A stretch of DNA of 64,000 nt from Anaerolineales bacterium (GCA_020630175.1 JAHDBW010000003.1:11982-75981); one strand, 5' to 3'; shown: positions 17,115 to 28,874, numbered from the stretch's first letter. Numbers and translations: made by a program. The notes: generated by a model from the sequence alone, not told the origin.

Positions 17115-17930
17115 CTAAAGCGCCTGTTTTGAAGGGGGAAATGCGTTTCCAGATGCAATAGGGGTCACTGATCCAGTTAACAGAATAGTGTTTTGGTTAG
17201 AAATATCAACATTAAGCAATCCACCGCAGGTTTGTACAGTTACCTGATTTTTTACATATTGCAACTGATTTGCGGCGGCAGCGGCGGCGCAACTGCTGCT
17301 GCCAGATGACAATGTGTAACCAGCGCCGCGCTCCCAAATTTCAATTTTGATAGTGTCTTGATCAACGCGTTCTAAGAACTGAACGTTGGTTCGATTAGGG
17401 AAGTTGGCGTGGGTTTCGATAGATGGACCGAGCGCTAGCGCAGTCGCTTTTGTTGCGGGCTGGCCTAACACAACACAGTGTGGGTTACCCATTGAGACCG
17501 GTAGGTATTGAATTTGCGTTTGATCTGGCAGGGTGAGGCTTTTTATTGCGGGGGCAATGGTTGCAGTGCCCATCTCAATTTTGATTAATGCATTAGATAG
17601 CTTAGTGGCACGCCTTTTAGCAAATGGGGTTTGCAGGACGATGGTGGTTAAGGCTGGGTCAGCGTCGAATAAGTACCGCGCAAAAATTCTTAGGCCGTTG
17701 CCGCTGGTTTCTGCTTCGCTGCCATCTGGATTGAAAATGCGCAGTTTTGCCACGCCAGCCGCAGCGGAGCCATAATCAATAAGCAGGCCGTCACTGCCTA
17801 CGCCAAAGTCAGTGTGGCATAGCCAGCGTGCAATGTCTGCTTCGGTATGCGTTGCGACTGCACTGGCTGGCACCACAATGTACGTGTTGCCAAGCGCCTG
17901 ATATTTTGAAAACTGAATGGAATGAGGCAA
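17115..17930 (-). CDS. DapF-fold (diaminopimelate epimerase family) protein with Ser at both catalytic Cys positions
   Basis: Collinear with DapF: FSKYQALGNTY, RIFNPDGSEAETSGNGLR, SMGNPHCV, ERGAGYTLSSGSSSCAA. The TTG start directly abuts the kinase stop codon. Confidence 0.8.
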   Translation of the reverse strand: MPHSIQFSKYQALGNTYIVVPASAVATHTEADIARWLCHTDFGVGSDGLLIDYGSAAAGVAKLRIFNPDGSEAETSGNGLRIFARYLFDADPALTTIVLQTPFAKRRATKLSNALIKIEMGTATIAPAIKSLTLPDQTQIQYLPVSMGNPHCVVLGQPATKATALALGPSIETHANFPNRTNVQFLERVDQDTIKIEIWERGAGYTLSSGSSSCAAAAAANQLQYVKNQVTVQTCGGLLNVDISNQNTILLTGSVTPIASGNAFPPSKQAL

Positions 17931-19970
17931 CTAATAAATTGAGCCAGTTGTTGCAGGTTGTGCAATTTGTCGCGTGGTGTGCACAAGGGAGTTGGTTGTA
18001 TCTAAGTTGTTGGTTGCAATTGTTGTGTCGTAGCGGGCAGGTAGCGTAATGCTGAACTGCGAGCCCTTCCCAGGGATGCTCTGTAAAGTAACTTCGCCTT
18101 GATGCAACTCTGCAAGTCGCTTTACTAGTGCCAGCCCTAAGCCTGATCCATCGTGGCGGCGGTCTAGCCCAGCGTCTAGCTGTACAAACGGCTGAAATAG
18201 CCGCTGTTGATCTGCGACAGGAATGCCGGGGCCGGTATCACCCACCATAAACTTGATTTGCGACGTATTGCGGTTCAAGCTTGTTTTTAGCCCAATGCGA
18301 CCGCCGGGAGGGGTAAATTTCACGGCGTTGTTGAGCAAGATAAGCAGCATTTGACGCAAGCGTTGCTCATCAGCATAAATTGATGTGATGTCAGGTGAAG
18401 GTGAGTATTTGACGCGGATGTTTTTCTCTTTTGCGGTTTCCGCAATAACATCTAGCGCGCTTTGGCAAATGTCACTGACCAAAAATTCATCTGGAAAAAT
18501 TTCTAATTCACGCGTGTCACTGCGCGTAATATCTAGAATGACATTGATAAGGTCGAGCAGGGCGCTGCCACTTTGATGAATCAAATTGACGGATTTGCGC
18601 TGTTCTGGACTGAGGGCACCGTAAATATCTGCATCTAACGACTCAGACATGCCTAAGATCGCGTTTAGCGGCGTGCGGAGTTCGTGACCCATGTTGGCCA
18701 AGAACTGATCTTTTGCAAGCAGCGCGCTTTGCAATTCATTGTTTACTGCGCCAAGCTCATGCGTGCGTTCGCTAACGCGTTGGGCCAAGCTATGGCGTTC
18801 CATCTCAAGCTCTTGGTTGACTGTTGCAAGTTCTAATGTGCGTGTTTGTACGTTTGCTTCGAGTTTTTCGTTGGCGTATTCCAATTGGCGGGCAGTGCGT
18901 CGCAATTCTGTAATATCGTGAAACACCAAAATATGCCCAACTGGAATGTTGTCATCTTTGCGGTTTTGAACATGCGAATAGTGCAGATCGTATTCGCGCA
19001 TTTCTGTGGTGCGGATATCAGACTGAATCTCGAGGGCAATTTGCATTTGCTTTGGAACATTGTTCTTTAGCAATTGCAAGACTTGCGGATAGTTTTGGAA
19101 TAACAACGCGGCGGGTTTGCCAAAGTTTCCTTTATCCCCAACGCTAAACATCTCACGTGCAACCGGATTGATTTCAACAGCACGCATTTCTGGGTCTAAT
19201 ACAATCACGGCATCGGCCAAACGGTCTAATACCGCTTGCCGTGCAATTGGGACCACATCCAACAGGCCAAACCAGAACACGCCTAATGCTAGGAAGAATG
19301 CGGTTAGTGTAAATGCAAATGGGGAAGGATCAATTAGCCCAAACGGACTGCGGCCAGAAAGGTATAGTGCGTTGGAAAGCCACGGCACAAGTACACCCAA
19401 GACGATAAAGATAACTTGCCACGAGTAGGTGGTGCGACGCCCTCTAAACAGCTTGCGCACCAGCATAATTGAGCCAATCAGCAGCAATATATAACTGTAA
19501 GCTGCATTAACGTTGAACCATTGCCCATAGCTCAAGACTTCAATTAAGGAGAAACGTGAGAAGCTGACGAGCTGATACTCATCCCAGATCAGGTTGTGAC
19601 TAGCGTTTGTGAACATCAAGAAGATGGTCACGAGCGGCACAATTAGCAGTAAGCCAACGTAGCGGTTGCGGTGTTTTGTAAAGGGTTCATAACCAGCGTA
19701 TTCAGCTGCGAAGCCTAACCACATGACGGGGATTGTGGTGATGCCAATATACTGTACCGCCGCCCAGACAATTTTGGCGTTGACCTCGTCGTTCCAGATT
19801 TCTAACGCATAGCCAAGACACCAAATTGCGCATCCTAGCGTCAATAAGGTAAATGGTTGTGATCCTGGCTTTCCAGAACGTGTGTAGGCGAATACCGCAA
19901 AAAATAGGCACAAACTTGCTGAAATAAGCAGCAAGCCGACCAATGCGTAAGATGGCTCTAGCATGGTCAT
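17931..19970 (-). CDS. sensor histidine kinase with N-terminal 7TM domain
   Basis: 7 TM helices, PAS-like region, coiled coil, H-box GHELRTPLN, and N/G1/G2 boxes (NNAVKFT, DTGPGI, GSGLGL). Confidence 0.9.
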   Translation of the reverse strand: MTMLEPSYALVGLLLISASLCLFFAVFAYTRSGKPGSQPFTLLTLGCAIWCLGYALEIWNDEVNAKIVWAAVQYIGITTIPVMWLGFAAEYAGYEPFTKHRNRYVGLLLIVPLVTIFLMFTNASHNLIWDEYQLVSFSRFSLIEVLSYGQWFNVNAAYSYILLLIGSIMLVRKLFRGRRTTYSWQVIFIVLGVLVPWLSNALYLSGRSPFGLIDPSPFAFTLTAFFLALGVFWFGLLDVVPIARQAVLDRLADAVIVLDPEMRAVEINPVAREMFSVGDKGNFGKPAALLFQNYPQVLQLLKNNVPKQMQIALEIQSDIRTTEMREYDLHYSHVQNRKDDNIPVGHILVFHDITELRRTARQLEYANEKLEANVQTRTLELATVNQELEMERHSLAQRVSERTHELGAVNNELQSALLAKDQFLANMGHELRTPLNAILGMSESLDADIYGALSPEQRKSVNLIHQSGSALLDLINVILDITRSDTRELEIFPDEFLVSDICQSALDVIAETAKEKNIRVKYSPSPDITSIYADEQRLRQMLLILLNNAVKFTPPGGRIGLKTSLNRNTSQIKFMVGDTGPGIPVADQQRLFQPFVQLDAGLDRRHDGSGLGLALVKRLAELHQGEVTLQSIPGKGSQFSITLPARYDTTIATNNLDTTNSLVHTTRQIAQPATTGSIY

Positions 19971-20188
19971 TCAAATATAGCAGAAATTAGAATAAAGTTG
20001 GAATCTAATTGGTTAGGTTTACCTGATTTTGTAAAGTATTTCGAAGAATACATTGTTTATCAGGTGATATTGCTTGTGTTTTTGCAATTTTTGCGCCACG
20101 TTACAAGACTGTCGGTATTGTTACCGGCTGTGTTTTTTTGCTGTTGTCGTAAAGACTAGCTGCTTAGTCTAGACTGTTTGGTGTTGTG

Positions 20189-21898
20189 CTACAGGTACCC
20201 TTCATCGAAATCACTTTTAGCACTTTCATAGGCAGTTTGCTGGTCGTCTTCATTTAGATACCCAACCGCACGATAAAGCGTTTCGTCATAGTCGCGGGTT
20301 TTGATCACAACTGGCATCGGCACTGCATGGCCTAATATCAATGCTTGCTGTTGCGTATCTAGCCGGGCTAACACTTCACGTAGTGAGCTTGCGCCACTAA
20401 CCCCAGAGAACACTGCGCGAATATCAGCTTCGTTATCAAGCAGGGCGGTGACGCGCGTGCCGATCTGGCTCATGACTTCATCATCGATTCCGCTTGGGCG
20501 CTGATCTACGACTAACAAAGTGACGTTGTACTTGCGTAGCTCACGGGCAATCGTGCCAAAAATTGTGTGTTTTGCAATTTCTGGATCAAGAAACTTGTGC
20601 GCTTCTTCGATCACAATCATCAGCGGTTTGGGTTGCGCGCCTTTTTGGGTTGTCGCCTTGTTTTTCGCCTCAACATAACGCTGGTGAACGCGGCGCGTGA
20701 GGTAATTTGCAACCAGCATATAGGCGGGTAGATTATCCCCATGCTTGCCAAATTCGAGCACGACACTGGTGCCATTGGTGAGCTTGTCGAAGATTTCGGT
20801 AACAACATTGTTGCTACTTTTTTCAACGAGAAAATCCATGCGCCGGAATAGTTCAAACTTCCGTTGGATAGCACTCAACGTGCCTTTGACCAACATGCCT
20901 TCATCAATAATCGTGTCGATTTCGTCACTGCCTTTTTCATCAAGTAACTTGGCGACCCAGTCTTTGCCTAATTTGCGGCGTAAATAATAGAGTGCGCCCG
21001 TTTGCACGTCGGACAGGTTCAGCATGCTGCTGAGCATTTCTACATCGGCGGGCTCAATATCTGAATATTGAATTTGGAATTCACCTGAAATTGTGTTGTT
21101 CCGCGCGCGCGATGTTTCTGCATCCAAGGTGTATAGGCTAGGGCGATTGGACGCAAGGATCTGGGTTAGCCCTTTCCACGTTTTGCCACGCTCATTCGTG
21201 ATTTCCCAGCCATAATCGCTGTGCATGTCAAAAATCAGACAAGAGGCTTTTTGCTTTGCAATCACGGCGGCTAACAAGGTCCGGGTGATAAAGGATTTCC
21301 CGGTCCCGCTCTTGCCAAACACGCCTGAAGACCGTTCTACAAAGCGATCTAGATCAAGGTTGACCTTGACGCCATCCATATCCAGCGGTGACCCGATGTA
21401 AAAGTGGTCGTCATCTTCTTCACCAAAGACTTGGTTTACGTCCTCTTCAGTGGCTTTGAAGACCGGTGAAAAGTGCGCTGGAATGGTCTTGTTAGGACGC
21501 GGTTCTTTGGCGTCTTCTTCTAACATCAACATTGGTGAGATGTTGGCGCGACCATAGGCGACGGTTGCGCGATAAATGTCCGCTAAGAATGGGCTGCTTG
21601 GGTCTGGTGGCGTTTGCTCAATGGCTGGATTGGTGTTATCTAAGATGATGTCCGTCACAATTGAGAAGAACTTCCGCTTCGTAAGCCCTTGCGCCACAAC
21701 GTAACGCCCAACGGCCATGTCTTCAATGGTTTGGCCAACGGCAGAACTGCTGTCTAGTTTGACCGTAATGCCCTTAGAAAGCGAACCGCCAACCACAACG
21801 CCGAGGCGTACGCGCGCTTCCTCACTGGCAGTGTCATTTTCTAATCCGATGGGGCGATTGTCTTCATCGCGTGGTAAAAAATCGTCTAAGTCGCTCAT
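20189..21898 (-). CDS. herA: HerA/FtsK-superfamily ATPase (DUF87-type)
   Basis: N-terminal barrel-like segment, Walker A GKSGTGKS, Walker B LMIVIEEAH, and LLVVDQRPS. Confidence 0.8.
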   Translation of the reverse strand: MSDLDDFLPRDEDNRPIGLENDTASEEARVRLGVVVGGSLSKGITVKLDSSSAVGQTIEDMAVGRYVVAQGLTKRKFFSIVTDIILDNTNPAIEQTPPDPSSPFLADIYRATVAYGRANISPMLMLEEDAKEPRPNKTIPAHFSPVFKATEEDVNQVFGEEDDDHFYIGSPLDMDGVKVNLDLDRFVERSSGVFGKSGTGKSFITRTLLAAVIAKQKASCLIFDMHSDYGWEITNERGKTWKGLTQILASNRPSLYTLDAETSRARNNTISGEFQIQYSDIEPADVEMLSSMLNLSDVQTGALYYLRRKLGKDWVAKLLDEKGSDEIDTIIDEGMLVKGTLSAIQRKFELFRRMDFLVEKSSNNVVTEIFDKLTNGTSVVLEFGKHGDNLPAYMLVANYLTRRVHQRYVEAKNKATTQKGAQPKPLMIVIEEAHKFLDPEIAKHTIFGTIARELRKYNVTLLVVDQRPSGIDDEVMSQIGTRVTALLDNEADIRAVFSGVSGASSLREVLARLDTQQQALILGHAVPMPVVIKTRDYDETLYRAVGYLNEDDQQTAYESAKSDFDEGYL

Positions 21899-22482
21899 AG
21901 TAAGCTCTCCAAGCGGCGTAAGATGGTGTCCAGACGTTGGAAGTCGTTCCCCATTAACTGGGCTAAATATTGCCCAGCGGTGCGTAGATATTGCGCCCGA
22001 TTTGGGTGGGCTTGCGCGGCTTGTTCTAGGACGCGCACGGTTAGTTCATCTGTGGGGGCGTCACTGGCTTGGAAGATCAACCTTAGAAAGTTGAAATCAC
22101 TTGTGAGCGCGGCAATTTCGGTATGTTCGCACAGCGCAATGTGGCTCAGCGTGAGCGGCGGTTGCGGTGGCAAGCCCGTGCGTACTTTTGTGCCTTGCAT
22201 ATAGCCAAGCGTTAGCACGCTTACCTCAATCGGCATTTGACGCTGCCGCTGATCTTGAATGATTTCAATCGGCGTGTCTTGATTGCCAACAATCTGCCGC
22301 ACAAGGTCATCATCTTCTAAAACAATGTTATAGATGGTGCCAATGGCGTGCGCAGTGCCGTTTTGAATAGGAACTTTTACAAATGCACCAAAATGGGGCA
22401 TCTCTGGTTTAGGAATAGCACAGCCAAAGGTGAAGCTCTGAATAGAGCTATGTAATAGCTGCCCGATTTGAATAGGCGACAT
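21895..22482 (-). CDS. 195-aa protein of unknown family, N-terminus HAS-barrel-like
   Basis: ATGA overlap with herA and a 5-nt gap after nurA. The N-terminal ~60 aa follow the same hydrophobic/Gly pattern as the HerA N-terminus. Confidence 0.6.
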   Translation of the reverse strand: MSPIQIGQLLHSSIQSFTFGCAIPKPEMPHFGAFVKVPIQNGTAHAIGTIYNIVLEDDDLVRQIVGNQDTPIEIIQDQRQRQMPIEVSVLTLGYMQGTKVRTGLPPQPPLTLSHIALCEHTEIAALTSDFNFLRLIFQASDAPTDELTVRVLEQAAQAHPNRAQYLRTAGQYLAQLMGNDFQRLDTILRRLESLL

Positions 22483-22487
22483 GATAG

Positions 22488-23717
22488 TTATCTACGTTTT
22501 TTGCGGCGTTTGGGTCTGGTAGACCCTTTCAGTTTTAGTTTGGCAGACTTGTGCGGCACGATGTTCTTCTTTAACAGTTCGCGGGTCAGCATATTTTCTA
22601 CGACCGTGCGATCTTGCGTTTGAATGACAGCTTCACCATCGGCGCGTGCCAGTGCATATGGGTAGTGCACGCCAGCGGTGTATTGTGATTGGCTGACCAA
22701 GGTTGCATGTAACAGGGCGATTTGCTCTGGATTGGTCGCAATCCACTCTGGTATTTCTACGCGCACCACGACTGGTGTTTCAGCAACCAAGCTGACATTC
22801 AAATAGAAAATGTGAATGCTATGCGTTTGATTGGCTCTTTCTTGTAAGGTGCGCTTGCGATAGGGCTCATTCCAGCCCGATGTTGTTTGGAAAATGGCGG
22901 ATCGCTCCCCCGGTCCCAAGTGTTTTTGAAACACGGCTCGATCAGAGACACCACCAAAGGGCGGCTCTTTTGCTTCAATTGCAACGTCTAATGCGTCTAT
23001 TTCAAAGCTAGACAGCCACAGCAGATTCAAAACTGGACTGCCGCCAGGTTGGTCTACATAGCCTGCCAACGCGCAGTCGCAATCGGCTAAGCGGTCCATT
23101 GCTTTTAGGTGTCGGTTATAAAGATAGCCAGTTTCACGCGCCGAAATGCCTTCCCCTTGCGTGCGGAGTGCGATTGGCCCGTCGATCAAGCTGACAACTG
23201 GGTGTGGCGAGGCTGTTCCCGTGTCAAGGCTGAGTTCGGTCAGGCCTTCCATTTCTGCCACAGTGCGACGTAAGTTGACCAGCGGCACCGTCACCATACG
23301 TCCGTCTACCAATACATCTTCATTTGATGCGGCAAGCACGGTATTGCGCACAACGGTTGGGGCTTCACCAGAGCCAATCTGGATAATAAAAGCGCCAATG
23401 TTTAACAAGTAGTATTGCAATGCAGAATGTTTATCGGGATAGATTTGAGACCCATCAACAGCGATCACCGTTGCTCTAGGCGTTTGTGCAGGGCAAGGAA
23501 AGGTTGCGGCAACATTTTCACCAGTCGGCTTCGCGCCACTCCATTCTCTGCTGGCGGCCGCGATTTCAGCTTTTGCATGCAAATCTTGCATAGCGCTAGC
23601 GGCGTTGAGTTGAATCAGCGCGGCTGGAATCAATTTGCTGTGTTGCGTAATACGATCTGCAATCGCATTACCAGCGTCTTGAATTTGGTGGGTGATGGCT
23701 TGGATGTTTATACTCAT
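22488..23717 (-). CDS. nurA: NurA-domain nuclease with polybasic C-terminal tail
   Basis: IAVDGSQ, SLIDGPIAL, GYVDQPGGS and YPYALARADGEAV motifs in NurA order. The C-terminus is KLKLKGSTRPKRRKKRR. Confidence 0.75.
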   Translation of the reverse strand: MSINIQAITHQIQDAGNAIADRITQHSKLIPAALIQLNAASAMQDLHAKAEIAAASREWSGAKPTGENVAATFPCPAQTPRATVIAVDGSQIYPDKHSALQYYLLNIGAFIIQIGSGEAPTVVRNTVLAASNEDVLVDGRMVTVPLVNLRRTVAEMEGLTELSLDTGTASPHPVVSLIDGPIALRTQGEGISARETGYLYNRHLKAMDRLADCDCALAGYVDQPGGSPVLNLLWLSSFEIDALDVAIEAKEPPFGGVSDRAVFQKHLGPGERSAIFQTTSGWNEPYRKRTLQERANQTHSIHIFYLNVSLVAETPVVVRVEIPEWIATNPEQIALLHATLVSQSQYTAGVHYPYALARADGEAVIQTQDRTVVENMLTRELLKKNIVPHKSAKLKLKGSTRPKRRKKRR

Positions 23718-23785
23718 GTCTCAGAACACGCGTTCGTATTATAGGCGAAATTTCATAATCTGGATAGGCGGTGAGTACTCCGCGT

Positions 23786-23803
23786 TTATAACAAGGTTAT
23801 AAC
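23786..23803. promoter_or_regulatory. operator-like site 1: TTATAAC-aagg-TTATAAC
   Basis: Lies between divergent -10 boxes: TATAAT at 23825-23830 (+) and TATAAT (reverse complement of 23738-23743) for nurA. One of three copies in the window. Confidence 0.55.
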
Positions 23804-23824
23804 TATGCATGCCTTGTAAATCAC

Positions 23825-24037
23825 TATAATACCCGCGCATCATTTAGTTGTACCCATGATGAAGTAGTGTTCGGCCTTGGCCGAGAGAGGATTCTTTTCG
23901 GAATGACACAACCGATATGGTTCAACAGCAGCAGCTTATAAATGCCCTTGGATGAGGGAAGTTGCCGGACAGTTGCCATCGATGTTTTGGTCTTAGCTTG
24001 ACCGCTAGAGCGCATTGTCTTTTGACAATGCGTTTTT
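23825..24037 (+). ncRNA. candidate small transcription unit (sRNA or 12-codon sORF mRNA)
   Basis: Perfect TATAAT 21 nt after site 1. Then a CUUG-loop hairpin plus GAGAGAGGAT box, ATG 23903 to TAA 23941, ending at a 9-bp-stem terminator with T5. Confidence 0.35.
24011..24037 (+). terminator. intrinsic terminator
   Basis: CGCATTGTC-TTTT-GACAATGCG followed by TTTTT. No A-run upstream, so it is plus-strand specific. Confidence 0.7.
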
Positions 24038-24073
24038 AGATTCTGATTCTGTTGATGGTTGGCGGAGGTGCTT

Positions 24074-24259
24074 ATGTTTTATAACAAACTTATAACAGCA
24101 ATGCTAAAGATCTCTCTCTATAATCAATCACGACACACTCACAGGGGCTTTCCAGCTATTTTTTGTTTAGATGCGGCTTTAAACGCCGAGAGAGGATCTG
24201 AATTGATGCGGCGGAAAGACTTCCTAACTATCCGATTTGATCACAACAATCTTTTGTAA
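24074..24259 (+). CDS. candidate 61-aa ORF (uncertain)
   Basis: Perfect SD GGAGGTG 3 nt before ATG 24074. However, the ORF contains operator site 2 and a TATAAT box and has no recognisable family. Confidence 0.25.
   Translation: MFYNKLITAMLKISLYNQSRHTHRGFPAIFCLDAALNAERGSELMRRKDFLTIRFDHNNLL
24079..24096. promoter_or_regulatory. operator-like site 2: TTATAAC-aaac-TTATAAC
   Basis: Followed after 22 nt by a perfect TATAAT (24119-24124). Same architecture as site 1. Confidence 0.55.
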
Positions 24260-24609
24260 TCACAAAATGTAAATATGCGTTACGACCTATTACAGCGGGT
24301 TTATGTTTCTAGCAACAACAGAGAGAGGCGTTGTTATGAATATTAGATCAGATGTAACCGTTGTAACACGAAGATCGATAGTGTGGTTTATGTTTCCTGC
24401 CAATATATAAGTGGCATAGAGAGGGGAATATAAAACTGCGCAGCTTTCAATAGCGATAGCTTAGAAACGCTCTAAACCAGAGAGGCTATTGGGCAGTGGG
24501 CTGAATGCTACGATCATTCACATATCAATCAGATTGTTATTACTAAGGCGCGGCGTGATCATCTGTGCTTGAGTATCCAGTTGTATTTTAAGAGAACTCA
24601 AAGGTATTT

Positions 24610-25923
24610 ATGAAATTGCTAACTAAATTGAAGCTACAGTTAAGTGTGCTCCTGGTTGTACTAGTGGCAATCTTTGCTGCACCGGTGCTTGCTGCGCCTG
24701 CGGCACAAGACTCGGTTAAGGCAACAACAGAGTATGTTGTGCAAAGTGGAGACAATCTATCCCACCTTGGACGGCGGTTTGGGATGCACCCAAGCGTTAT
24801 CATCGGCGCTAACCCGCAGTTGGTCTTTCGTCCAAACGTGTTGATTCCTGGCGAAACGCTCATCATTCCCGGTGAACATTTTGTAGGGACTGACTCCGTT
24901 GCAGACGTGCTCGCAAGCGATCCGCGCTTGTCTACGTTCCTTATTGCGGCACGCACTGCAGAATTGTTAGACGATTTGGATTATGTGGGGCGATACACGG
25001 TTTTTGTTCCAACAAATGCTGCATTTCAACAGCTTTCATCAAGTGCACGTGGTGACCTGTTGAATAACTTGGCATTTATGAACACGATTGTGCATTACCA
25101 CATTGTGCCAGAGCGTTACACAATGGCAGAGCTTGCTAATCAAAGTGCCGTGGCGTCTTATTCAGGCGCAGGCATTAGCGTGACCGGATCTGGGTCAGCA
25201 TTAGCGGTCAATGGTGTTCCCATCAGTGCGGCAAGCAGTATCGAAACGTCTAACGGCGTTGTCTACCTGCTCCCGGCACTGTTACCATTGCCAGATGATG
25301 CCCAACTCACTACTGACGCAACAACAATTGACTTTGCTTCAACATTTGATGTCAACACAGCGGGCAATGCTACGGCTGTCCAAGCTGAAATTGCTGACGT
25401 TGCTGAGGCATTAGAAGAGGGTGCGGAAACAGATACAGAAGTCCTTGGGGTTGCGCTGCCAACACCTGCCAGCACGACTAACCAAGCGCTGACAGTGGCT
25501 ACAGCCAGCTTGTCTGGGAGTAACCTACGGGTTGCACCAAATTCTGTTGTACTGAGCTGTGGTTCCTTATCAGTTTCATTAAGCGATGTCTTACAGTCAC
25601 TTAGTGGGCCGCTTAGCATAAATACCCTAGATGTTGCATATGTGCATTACCATAATGGATTTAGCCGTGGCAGTACGGAGGCTTGTGTCACCTTCACTGC
25701 TGAGGTTGCGGGGGGTAAAGCGCCACATCGAATTTTGATCAACAACATTCCGATTGTGCCGCGCAATGCCCACCTGAATTCACGGGTCGGGGGCGAATTT
25801 GGTGACATTGAATTTGACGTATTGGCAGACTGCAATCAAGCTTACTCATTTGCACTTACAGTAGAAAGTGGAGATGGTCAGCAAGCCACGCGTGTCTTCA
25901 ACCAGTTCATTCCTTGCCCATAG
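24610..25923 (+). CDS. secreted LysM + fasciclin (FAS1) domain protein
   Basis: Signal peptide; LysM (YVVQSGDNLSHLGRRFG); FAS1 motifs (TVFVPTNAAFQQL, NGVVYLL); Cys-containing C-terminal domain. Confidence 0.8.
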   Translation: MKLLTKLKLQLSVLLVVLVAIFAAPVLAAPAAQDSVKATTEYVVQSGDNLSHLGRRFGMHPSVIIGANPQLVFRPNVLIPGETLIIPGEHFVGTDSVADVLASDPRLSTFLIAARTAELLDDLDYVGRYTVFVPTNAAFQQLSSSARGDLLNNLAFMNTIVHYHIVPERYTMAELANQSAVASYSGAGISVTGSGSALAVNGVPISAASSIETSNGVVYLLPALLPLPDDAQLTTDATTIDFASTFDVNTAGNATAVQAEIADVAEALEEGAETDTEVLGVALPTPASTTNQALTVATASLSGSNLRVAPNSVVLSCGSLSVSLSDVLQSLSGPLSINTLDVAYVHYHNGFSRGSTEACVTFTAEVAGGKAPHRILINNIPIVPRNAHLNSRVGGEFGDIEFDVLADCNQAYSFALTVESGDGQQATRVFNQFIPCP

Positions 25924-28807: not shown

Positions 28808-28856
28808 GGCGCGATTGTACACGAGTGTTTTGCCGTTGTTGACCCACTTTTAAGGC

Positions 28857-28874
28857 TTATAACGGACTTATAAC
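28857..28874. promoter_or_regulatory. operator-like site 3: TTATAAC-ggac-TTATAAC
   Basis: Lies 37 nt upstream of the TACAAT -10 box of the XRE gene. Identical half-sites and 11-bp period as sites 1 and 2. Confidence 0.55.

Follow-up and report, generated by a model that had tools for sequence, protein, structure and literature searches.

The window analyzed here, a 64,000-nucleotide (nt) stretch of genomic DNA from an Anaerolineales bacterium (GCA_020630175.1), carries the genes nurA and herA on its minus strand with a third gene between them, which we call gene X. Our preferred explanation, held with moderate confidence, is that the three genes form a chromosomal and probably damage-inducible operon, which would encode a NurA-HerA end-resection machine with an extra, undescribed subunit, protein X. 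On the sequence evidence, X is a real and conserved protein that had not been described before, and the two enzymes encoded on either side of it are of known kinds. Its predicted structure makes X a HAS-barrel paralogue that lacks an ATPase core and is fused to a novel helical domain.

From the archaeal and Deinococcus complexes, HerA is known as a ring-forming ATPase that drives the translocation of double-stranded DNA, and NurA as a nuclease that, as a dimer, binds the HAS-barrel ring of HerA and cleaves the DNA delivered to it. The pair is the model for DNA-end resection in archaea, and HerA rings also drive several anti-phage systems. In every such case the HAS-barrel ring is the platform for a partner enzyme, and a free-standing HAS-barrel protein such as X would imply a third component at that site.

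Protein X is predicted to join a HAS-barrel to a novel helical domain

No match to X was found in Pfam, NCBIfam, PADLOC, or PHROGs at an E value of ≤1, and searches of PDB sequences with the protein and with its profile returned chance matches only, in agreement with the original prediction, made from the window sequence alone, that this 195-residue product belongs to no recognized family. Similarly, the literature on HerA, NurA, the HAS-barrel, and Chloroflexi that we searched does not mention it. The close relatives of X fall into 38 clusters with 39 to 80% identity, all of approximately 195 to 211 residues, and an exhaustive profile search found 903 clusters (at 50% identity) with E values of ≤1e-3, 558 of them at ≤1e-10. 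The family signature includes LPPQPP followed by an invariant cysteine and a conserved acidic patch (D57/D58). X is an acidic protein (isoelectric point [pI], 5.6), as is the family (median, 5.3). A search with divergent members also recovered relatives in Dehalococcoidia and thermophilic Synechococcus, and the apparent confinement of the family to Anaerolineae was thus an artifact of searching with a single peptide pattern. Natural fusions of NurA with X were discarded as evidence of an interaction, since the longer family members concerned (P0148 and P0178) look like frameshifted NurA-plus-X gene calls.

The AlphaFold model of X (predicted local distance difference test [pLDDT], 89.6; predicted template-modeling score [pTM], 0.82) contains no ATPase core. 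In a Foldseek search of the PDB with this model, the top 50 matches were all HerA chains, with E values from 2.3e-5 to 1.6e-3 over approximately 135 aligned columns, a probability of 1.00, and query-normalized template-modeling scores of 0.36 to 0.45. They include the HerA subunits of DUF4297-HerA, Sulfolobus HerA, Thermococcus HerA-NurA, SIR2-HerA, TdpAB, and D. radiodurans HerA. In addition, ten homologues of X match the Pfam HAS-barrel domain PF09378 (25.0 to 32.8 bits, with a cutoff of 25.2; E = 7.5e-8 to 2.1e-5), most of them over nearly the full model. The family of the window protein (A1) aligns with the wider divergent set (A2) in hhalign with a probability of 100% and an E value of 1.9e-58, which makes its homology to the divergent set that matches PF09378 unambiguous. 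The assignment of X as a HAS-barrel protein is based on these two observations, the uniform fold matches to HerA and the PF09378 matches of its homologues.

The original prediction had compared the first part of X with the N-terminal barrel of the adjacent HerA. The barrel itself stands, by fold and by the PF09378 homologues, while the direct sequence comparison is nonsignificant and the C-terminal domain is unlike HerA. Between X and the adjacent HerA, BLASTP found nothing, and hhalign returned a probability of 1.5%. Three independent X profiles compared with the HerA N terminus alone all aligned to the same segment, residues ∼27 to 92, with E values of 0.0015 to 0.0046 and low probability. 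We regard this alignment, which corresponds to the resemblance noted in the original prediction, as no more than suggestive. The C-terminal domain modeled alone (residues 116 to 195; pLDDT, 93.0) again consists of five helices, and its best Foldseek match in the PDB has an E value of 1.1, with generic helical repeats only. A reading of X as a HerA without its RecA core, that is, a barrel plus the HerA helix bundle, was rejected because this isolated domain matches neither HerA nor anything else.

Conservation of the nurA-X-herA order

The order of the three genes was surveyed in two sets of loci. Set A comes from a genome scan with one peptide pattern, limited to Anaerolineae-type sequences, and comprises 80 species-level loci; its counts refer to 82 nonduplicate loci, including two found separately, with the loci that have enough flanking sequence as denominators. 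Set B was obtained by scanning metagenomes with a divergent X subfamily, 27 to 45% identical to the window protein, and comprises 85 loci. In set A, 51 of 68 loci have nurA immediately before X, and 35 of 54 have herA downstream of X. Among the 47 set A loci with both flanks long enough, 25 hold the full triad, 8 hold NurA and X only, 4 hold X and HerA only, and 10 hold X alone. Set B has herA as the next gene downstream of X in 32 of 33 loci, at a median distance of 12 nt; 42 of 48 loci have nurA upstream of X and encoded on the same strand, and 23 of 25 contain the complete triad. Conservation of the order in related genomes, which the original prediction had left as a question, is borne out by these counts. 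Its retention in both sets indicates that nurA-X-herA is ancestral to a broad Chloroflexota family.

Insertions are placed between X and herA in set A and between nurA and X in set B. The X-herA spacer of set A ranges from an overlap to 1.9 kb and accumulates cargo genes. Loci with cargo hotspots in the X-herA or nurA-X interval include L008, L017, L018, L001, L042, L088, and L094, and the cargo includes PDDEXK_3, MNT/HepT or MNT/HEPN toxin-antitoxin pairs, a Y1 transposase-like gene, peptidase M32, and an acetyl-CoA synthetase-like gene. One insert is conserved: a nucleotidyltransferase-fold gene of ∼262 codons is fixed between X and herA in a single subclade (L025, L043, L046, L049, L059, L063, L066, and L083). 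Eight of the 11 open reading frames (ORFs) of ∼260 codons that were compared in this interval form this one family, with copies 57 to 84% identical, and the other X-herA inserts are varied cargo. The product has weak matches to Pfam NTP_transf_2 and a PADLOC match to PDC-S09 at 7.9e-8. The gene may encode a fourth component peculiar to this lineage, or it may be an insertion that is stably inherited; its candidacy as a general fourth subunit was rejected because it is lineage specific and the other inserts vary.

In L085 and L086 (the Synechococcus sp. R55.6 lineage) and in L038, L044, L068, and L076, X stands free, and neither a NurA nor a HerA gene lies within 6 to 7 kb of it. X is flanked by NDH and ftsW/murD genes in thermophilic Synechococcus. 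Its neighbors in a Thermoflexales-like clade are a VanW-like gene on one side, which overlaps X in L044, and rtcA/RNase Z on the other.

The flanking enzymes NurA and HerA

Profile searches uphold the assignment of both enzymes in the original prediction, and all the motifs it quoted were found in the translations. NurA matches Pfam PF09376 with an E value of 2.7e-21 (76.7 bits; cutoff, 21), its residues 83 to 365 covering model positions 2 to 254 of 254. Its translation contains IAVDGSQ, LIDGPIAL, GYVDQPGGS, and YPYALARADGEAV, and residues D88 (IAVDGSQ), E155, D179 (LIDGP), D259, and H337 are each at least 90% conserved among 51 orthologues. The predicted metal-binding acidic and histidine residues are those of the ordered motifs, assigned by orthologue conservation. 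Neither PDB sequences (at 0.01) nor PADLOC gave any match to NurA. The protein ends in a polybasic tail, KLKLKGSTRPKRRKKRR, following a core that is itself acidic (pI without the tail, 5.5). This tail had been singled out as unusual; it is instead a clade-wide feature, with a median of 7 lysine or arginine residues within the last 25 positions and with S391, K393, and K397 conserved.

HerA matches DUF87 (PF01935; E = 1.7e-30), PADLOC HerA models (best E = 3.9e-36), and several NCBIfam HerA models (∼1e-23 to 1e-28), the last with an alignment spanning residues 58 to 544. The best NCBIfam match is the archaeal HerA_Thermprot, at 98.8 bits against a cutoff of 800, and HerA_antiphage scores 86.7 bits against the same cutoff of 800. 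As all of the NCBIfam scores fall far below the equivalog cutoffs, the profile comparisons place the window protein in a distinct HerA clade. Its translation holds the motifs GKSGTGKS, IVIEEAH, and VVDQRPS, and Walker A (G195 to K201), Walker B (E431/E432), and the arginine finger R467 are each at least 90% conserved. The best match among PDB sequences is 8wiv (4.2e-23), and D. radiodurans HerA did not attain an E value of ≤1e-5 in the sequence comparison. The clade is highly conserved, the top 120 relatives being 61 to 68% identical and those with names being Chloroflexi. Many of these orthologues carry the PF09378 HAS-barrel plus PF01935; the window protein itself has no PF09378 match at an E value of ≤1, and its N-terminal HAS-barrel is assigned through the orthologues. 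The HerA N terminus is acidic (pI 4.5).

Operon architecture and a putative LexA box in the nurA leader

The packing of the three minus-strand ORFs, with a 5-nt gap at one junction and an ATGA overlap at the other (Table 1), reads exactly as originally described. The 4-nt overlap of X with herA is also found in loci L005, L006, L087, L088, and L092, and the nurA-X junction is tight in every one of the Anaerolineae-type loci, where it is frequently a 4-nt overlap. We infer from the junctions that gene X is translationally coupled with both of its neighbors. A consensus scan of the minus strand within the operon gave no promoter-like or terminator-like sites, which fits a single transcription unit, and an Rfam search of positions 19500 to 25000 found no known RNAs. 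Over the same species pairs (the window operon against L005 to L084), identity is ∼55 to 66% for HerA, ∼40 to 50% for X, and ∼30 to 35% for NurA. By this measure, the evolutionary rates of the three proteins differ strongly, with HerA the slowest, X in the middle, and NurA the fastest.

The nurA leader reads TATAAT-ac-GAACgcgtGTTC-tgagac-ATG and thus holds a palindrome of the form GAAC-N4-GTTC, which begins 2 nt past the TATAAT and lies 7 to 18 nt before the start codon. A site so placed would lie over the expected transcription start, as is usual for the operator of a repressor. At the matching place, L005 and L006 have GAACacacGTTC, in which the arms are conserved and the spacer is changed. 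The site is the only intergenic GAAC-N4-GT[T/G]C in the window; one other exact GAAC-N4-GTTC, at 17381 to 17392, lies inside a dapF-like ORF and is probably there by chance. Of 81 loci in which the NurA start is aligned, 22 have the box with at most one mismatch between positions −120 and +15, with a background of 3.6% per equal-sized window (binomial P ∼ 7e-14, a value inflated by relatedness among the loci). In 17 of the 22, the box is located at −18 to −27, most of these being GAAC-N4-GTGC at −23 to −27.

The LexA protein of Dehalococcoides reportedly recognizes a GAAC-N4-GTTC box as well (Fernandez de Henestrosa et al., J Bacteriol, 2002), and a literature search for a Chloroflexi LexA motif found nothing. 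The same sequence, GAAC-N4-GTTC, is the LexA (SOS) box of B. subtilis (PMC4234289). The leader therefore suggests a putative LexA operator, with repression by LexA and induction by DNA damage. The operon is probably damage inducible because the box overlaps the promoter, and the putative SOS operator would independently point to a role in the DNA damage response.

The TATAAT ends 20 nt before the nurA start codon, and no Shine-Dalgarno sequence is visible between 23715 and 23743. The mRNA of the operon probably has a short leader or almost none. The ∼890-bp noncoding region upstream of nurA also contains a direct repeat, GTTATAA-N4-GTTATAAA, on the minus strand at 23785 to 23803 and 24078 to 24096, 293 nt apart. 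Each copy is part of a duplicated module of ∼300 nt that also holds GCCGAGAGAGGAT, and these blocks are invariant in L005 and L006. A third copy with one mismatch is located at 28856 to 28874, giving three matches where 0.01 is expected by chance. The element may be a regulator binding site or mark promoters of small transcripts, and this region is probably the neighboring "regulatory hub" to which the original prediction referred.

Table 1. Features of the nurA-X-herA operon and its leader (positions in the window)
Feature	Position	Strand	Description
TATAAT	23738-23743	minus	Likely −10 element of the operon; invariant in the alignment with L005 and L006
GAACgcgtGTTC	23724-23735	minus	Palindrome of LexA/Cheo box form, between the −10 box and the nurA ATG
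nurA	22488-23717	minus	409-residue ORF; NurA-family nuclease with conserved basic C-terminal tail
nurA stop/gene X start	22483-22487	minus	5-nt gap; reads TAA ctatc ATG
Gene X	21895-22482	minus	195-residue ORF; HAS-barrel-like domain plus five-helix domain
X residues 1-117	22132-22482	minus	Predicted beta-barrel (HAS-barrel-like) with helical hairpin insert at residues 59-80
X residues 118-195	21898-22131	minus	Predicted five-helix domain with no detectable known relative
Gene X stop/herA start	21895-21898	minus	ATGA overlap; reads cTATGAgc
herA	20189-21898	minus	569-residue ORF; HerA/FtsK-type ATPase with its own predicted N-terminal HAS-barrel

Proposed mechanism and the role of X

In the mechanism that we propose, LexA would repress the operon at the GAAC-N4-GTTC box, DNA damage would induce it, and X would be made in step with NurA and HerA and join their complex at the interface between the HAS ring and NurA. 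Co-production and joining of the complex are probable because gene X is coupled to both neighbors and the gene order is conserved. At this interface, X could act as an adaptor that alters the docking of NurA or as a regulator of that docking. In D. radiodurans, a NurA dimer docks on the HAS-barrel ring of HerA in a 6:2 HerA:NurA complex, and the interface is ionic, pairing the acidic residues D78/E80/D81 of the HAS-barrel with basic motifs of NurA (PMC9960219). By analogy, the acidic X and the acidic HerA N terminus may both bind the conserved basic tail of NurA. The C-terminal helical domain of X could offer an additional contact to DNA, to NurA, or to Mre11-Rad50.

A more specific arrangement, which we put forward as speculation and consider doubtful, is that X forms a ring of HAS-barrels of its own, which would stack coaxially on the HAS ring of HerA or replace that ring as the platform for NurA, with the helical domain recruiting Mre11-Rad50 or gating the entry of DNA. 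If true, the X ring would create a three-tier architecture of translocase, adaptor, and nuclease that has not been seen in any solved HerA complex, and X would be a "domain-only paralogue" that reprograms a ring ATPase. The free-standing copies of X (in Synechococcus, in the VanW/RtcA contexts, and in L084) hint that HAS-barrel adaptors could be reused with other HerA-type motors.

X might also be a negative regulator or decoy that occupies the NurA docking surface, or caps the HAS ring of HerA, and so keeps the nuclease-translocase inactive until it is released by damage or by a partner such as Mre11-Rad50, an alternative that we judge unlikely. Its fold and the PF09378 homologues make X a copy of the HerA domain to which NurA binds (PMC9960219). 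X has no ATPase core and is acidic like the HAS surface of HerA, the conserved tail of NurA is basic, and X occurs at times without an adjacent NurA or HerA. However, genes that are translationally coupled and expressed at roughly matched levels more typically encode stoichiometric subunits than regulators, and the conserved C-terminal helical domain implies a role beyond mimicry.

DNA repair or phage defense

The genomic context bears on the choice that the original prediction had left between an end-resection module with a third subunit and a defense-like machine. From 15.7 to 28.3 kb, the window is collinear, gene for gene, with two related species-level metagenome-assembled genomes (MAGs), L005 and L006, and the flanks consist of housekeeping genes, e.g., those for DapF and a histidine kinase, with no defense-island setting. 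The possibility that the operon lies in a variable island is thus contradicted by the collinear flanks. In L092, a single strand carries nurA, X, herA, mre11 (Metallophos), and rad50/SbcC (with a zinc hook). An Mre11-like gene follows herA in 8 loci (7 of the 49 among those with at least 3 kb of sequence beyond herA), and it abuts herA directly in L024 and L075. No relatives were found in a scan of viral contigs. Collectively, the conserved order, the collinear flanks, the linkage to Mre11/Rad50, the LexA-box-like site, and the lack of viral relatives favor DNA repair over phage defense and thus the first of the two original options.

An anti-phage role for the operon, with NurA serving as the nuclease effector of a HerA-plus-effector system and X as a sensor or accessory protein, seems improbable. 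The matches of HerA to PADLOC models, the dominance of HerA-effector defense complexes among the structural matches of X, and the frequent insertion of toxin-antitoxin and PDDEXK genes at the locus are in keeping with such a system. A further point in its favor comes from L084, in the same MAG as L060. Here a second, divergent copy of X (36% identity) is located beside a tyrosine-recombinase-like gene (integrase) and is convergent with a gene for a 975-residue PLD-plus-SNF2 helicase (PADLOC matches to DrmD and HKD+Snf2-like models) and with one for a divergent 578-residue HerA, a setting that looks like a defense island and points away from repair. Against this, NurA and X have no match in PADLOC, the HerA_antiphage score is far under its cutoff, the locus is collinear with related species between housekeeping flanks, and the module has apparently been inherited broadly across Chloroflexota classes. 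The Mre11/Rad50 linkage in related loci, the LexA-box-like operator, and the viral scan likewise argue for repair.

That X is a functionally unrelated neighbor caught between nurA and herA is very improbable: X does occur without nearby NurA or HerA in some loci and in Synechococcus, and the locus readily takes up other genes, but the order is retained at 27 to 50% identity in two independent samples, X overlaps both neighbors by 4 nt among the loci, its fold is shared specifically with the NurA-binding domain of HerA, and the inserted cargo differs between loci while X is constant.

Several observations weigh against an end-resection operon with X as a third subunit. The barrel identity of X and its linkage are observations, and the contact of X with NurA or HerA and its effect are what we infer from them. 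Linkage is not absolute, since 10 of the 47 Anaerolineae-type loci, and Synechococcus, carry X by itself, and NurA or HerA is missing from the available flanks of some loci, although it may be encoded elsewhere in those genomes. The direct profile comparison of X with HerA is statistically unconvincing. Both enzymes are only remotely related to characterized ones, as seen in the empty PDB sequence search for NurA and in the HerA scores below the NCBIfam equivalog cutoffs. The reading of the palindrome as a LexA box depends on the use of the Gram-positive box by Chloroflexi LexA, which we assume here. Most set B loci are without the box, and the window contains no lexA or recA with a promoter for comparison. 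Homologues of Mre11 and Rad50 are likewise absent from the window. As for the outcomes that the original prediction had named as incompatible with it, X belongs to no known family unrelated to HerA, it is present at orthologous herA-nurA loci, and the NurA and HerA assignments hold in profile searches.

X is encoded in hundreds of Chloroflexota lineages and is absent from Pfam, NCBIfam, and the searchable literature; the family needs a name and an annotation. It would provide a natural handle on how partner docking at HerA rings is controlled. Together with the LexA-box-like operator, it gives a first indication of how the resection of double-strand breaks may be organized and regulated in Chloroflexota, a phylum that is large and has been little studied.

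Comparison with known systems

The closest bacterial parallel is the NurA-HerA pair of Deinococcus radiodurans (PDB 7f6d and 7wrw; PMC9960219), which is also encoded in a nurA-herA operon and in which HerA has a HAS-barrel, a RecA-like core, and a helix bundle. A basic NurA sits on an acidic HAS ring there, and the window operon has a conserved basic NurA tail and an acidic HerA N terminus. D. radiodurans HerA is also among the fold matches of X, at Foldseek ranks 40 and 50. The Deinococcus system differs in having two genes, with no third HAS-barrel protein described (PMC9960219).

The archaeal herA-mre11-rad50-nurA cluster (Sulfolobus, Pyrococcus, and Thermococcus; PDB 4d2i and 9x1m) contains the same two core enzymes, and its linkage is echoed in L092 and in several Anaerolineae loci, where Mre11-like and Rad50/SbcC-like genes come after herA and share its strand. 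In contrast, the order here is nurA-X-herA(-mre11-rad50), with X as an extra gene, and this particular window lacks Mre11/Rad50, belongs to a bacterial host, and is under what appears to be SOS-type control.

The HerA-effector anti-phage complexes (SIR2-HerA, 8wld; DUF4297-HerA, 8ziq/9c1m; TdpAB, 8wfd) are likewise built on a HerA hexamer that recruits a partner enzyme through its HAS ring. Among these complexes are the closest structural matches to the barrel of X and, by PDB sequence, to the window HerA (8wiv). They differ from the operon described here in that the partner is SIR2 or DUF4297 rather than NurA, and the window offers no defense-island context. No free-standing HAS-barrel protein is present in the retrieved entries and papers on these systems.

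At the level of the domain itself, the predicted N-terminal domain of X has the same fold as the PF09378 HAS-barrel, which is N-terminal in HerA and in F1-ATPase-like rings. The known proteins fuse this domain to an ATPase, whereas X is a separate protein of ∼200 residues in which the barrel is predicted to be joined to a novel helical domain.

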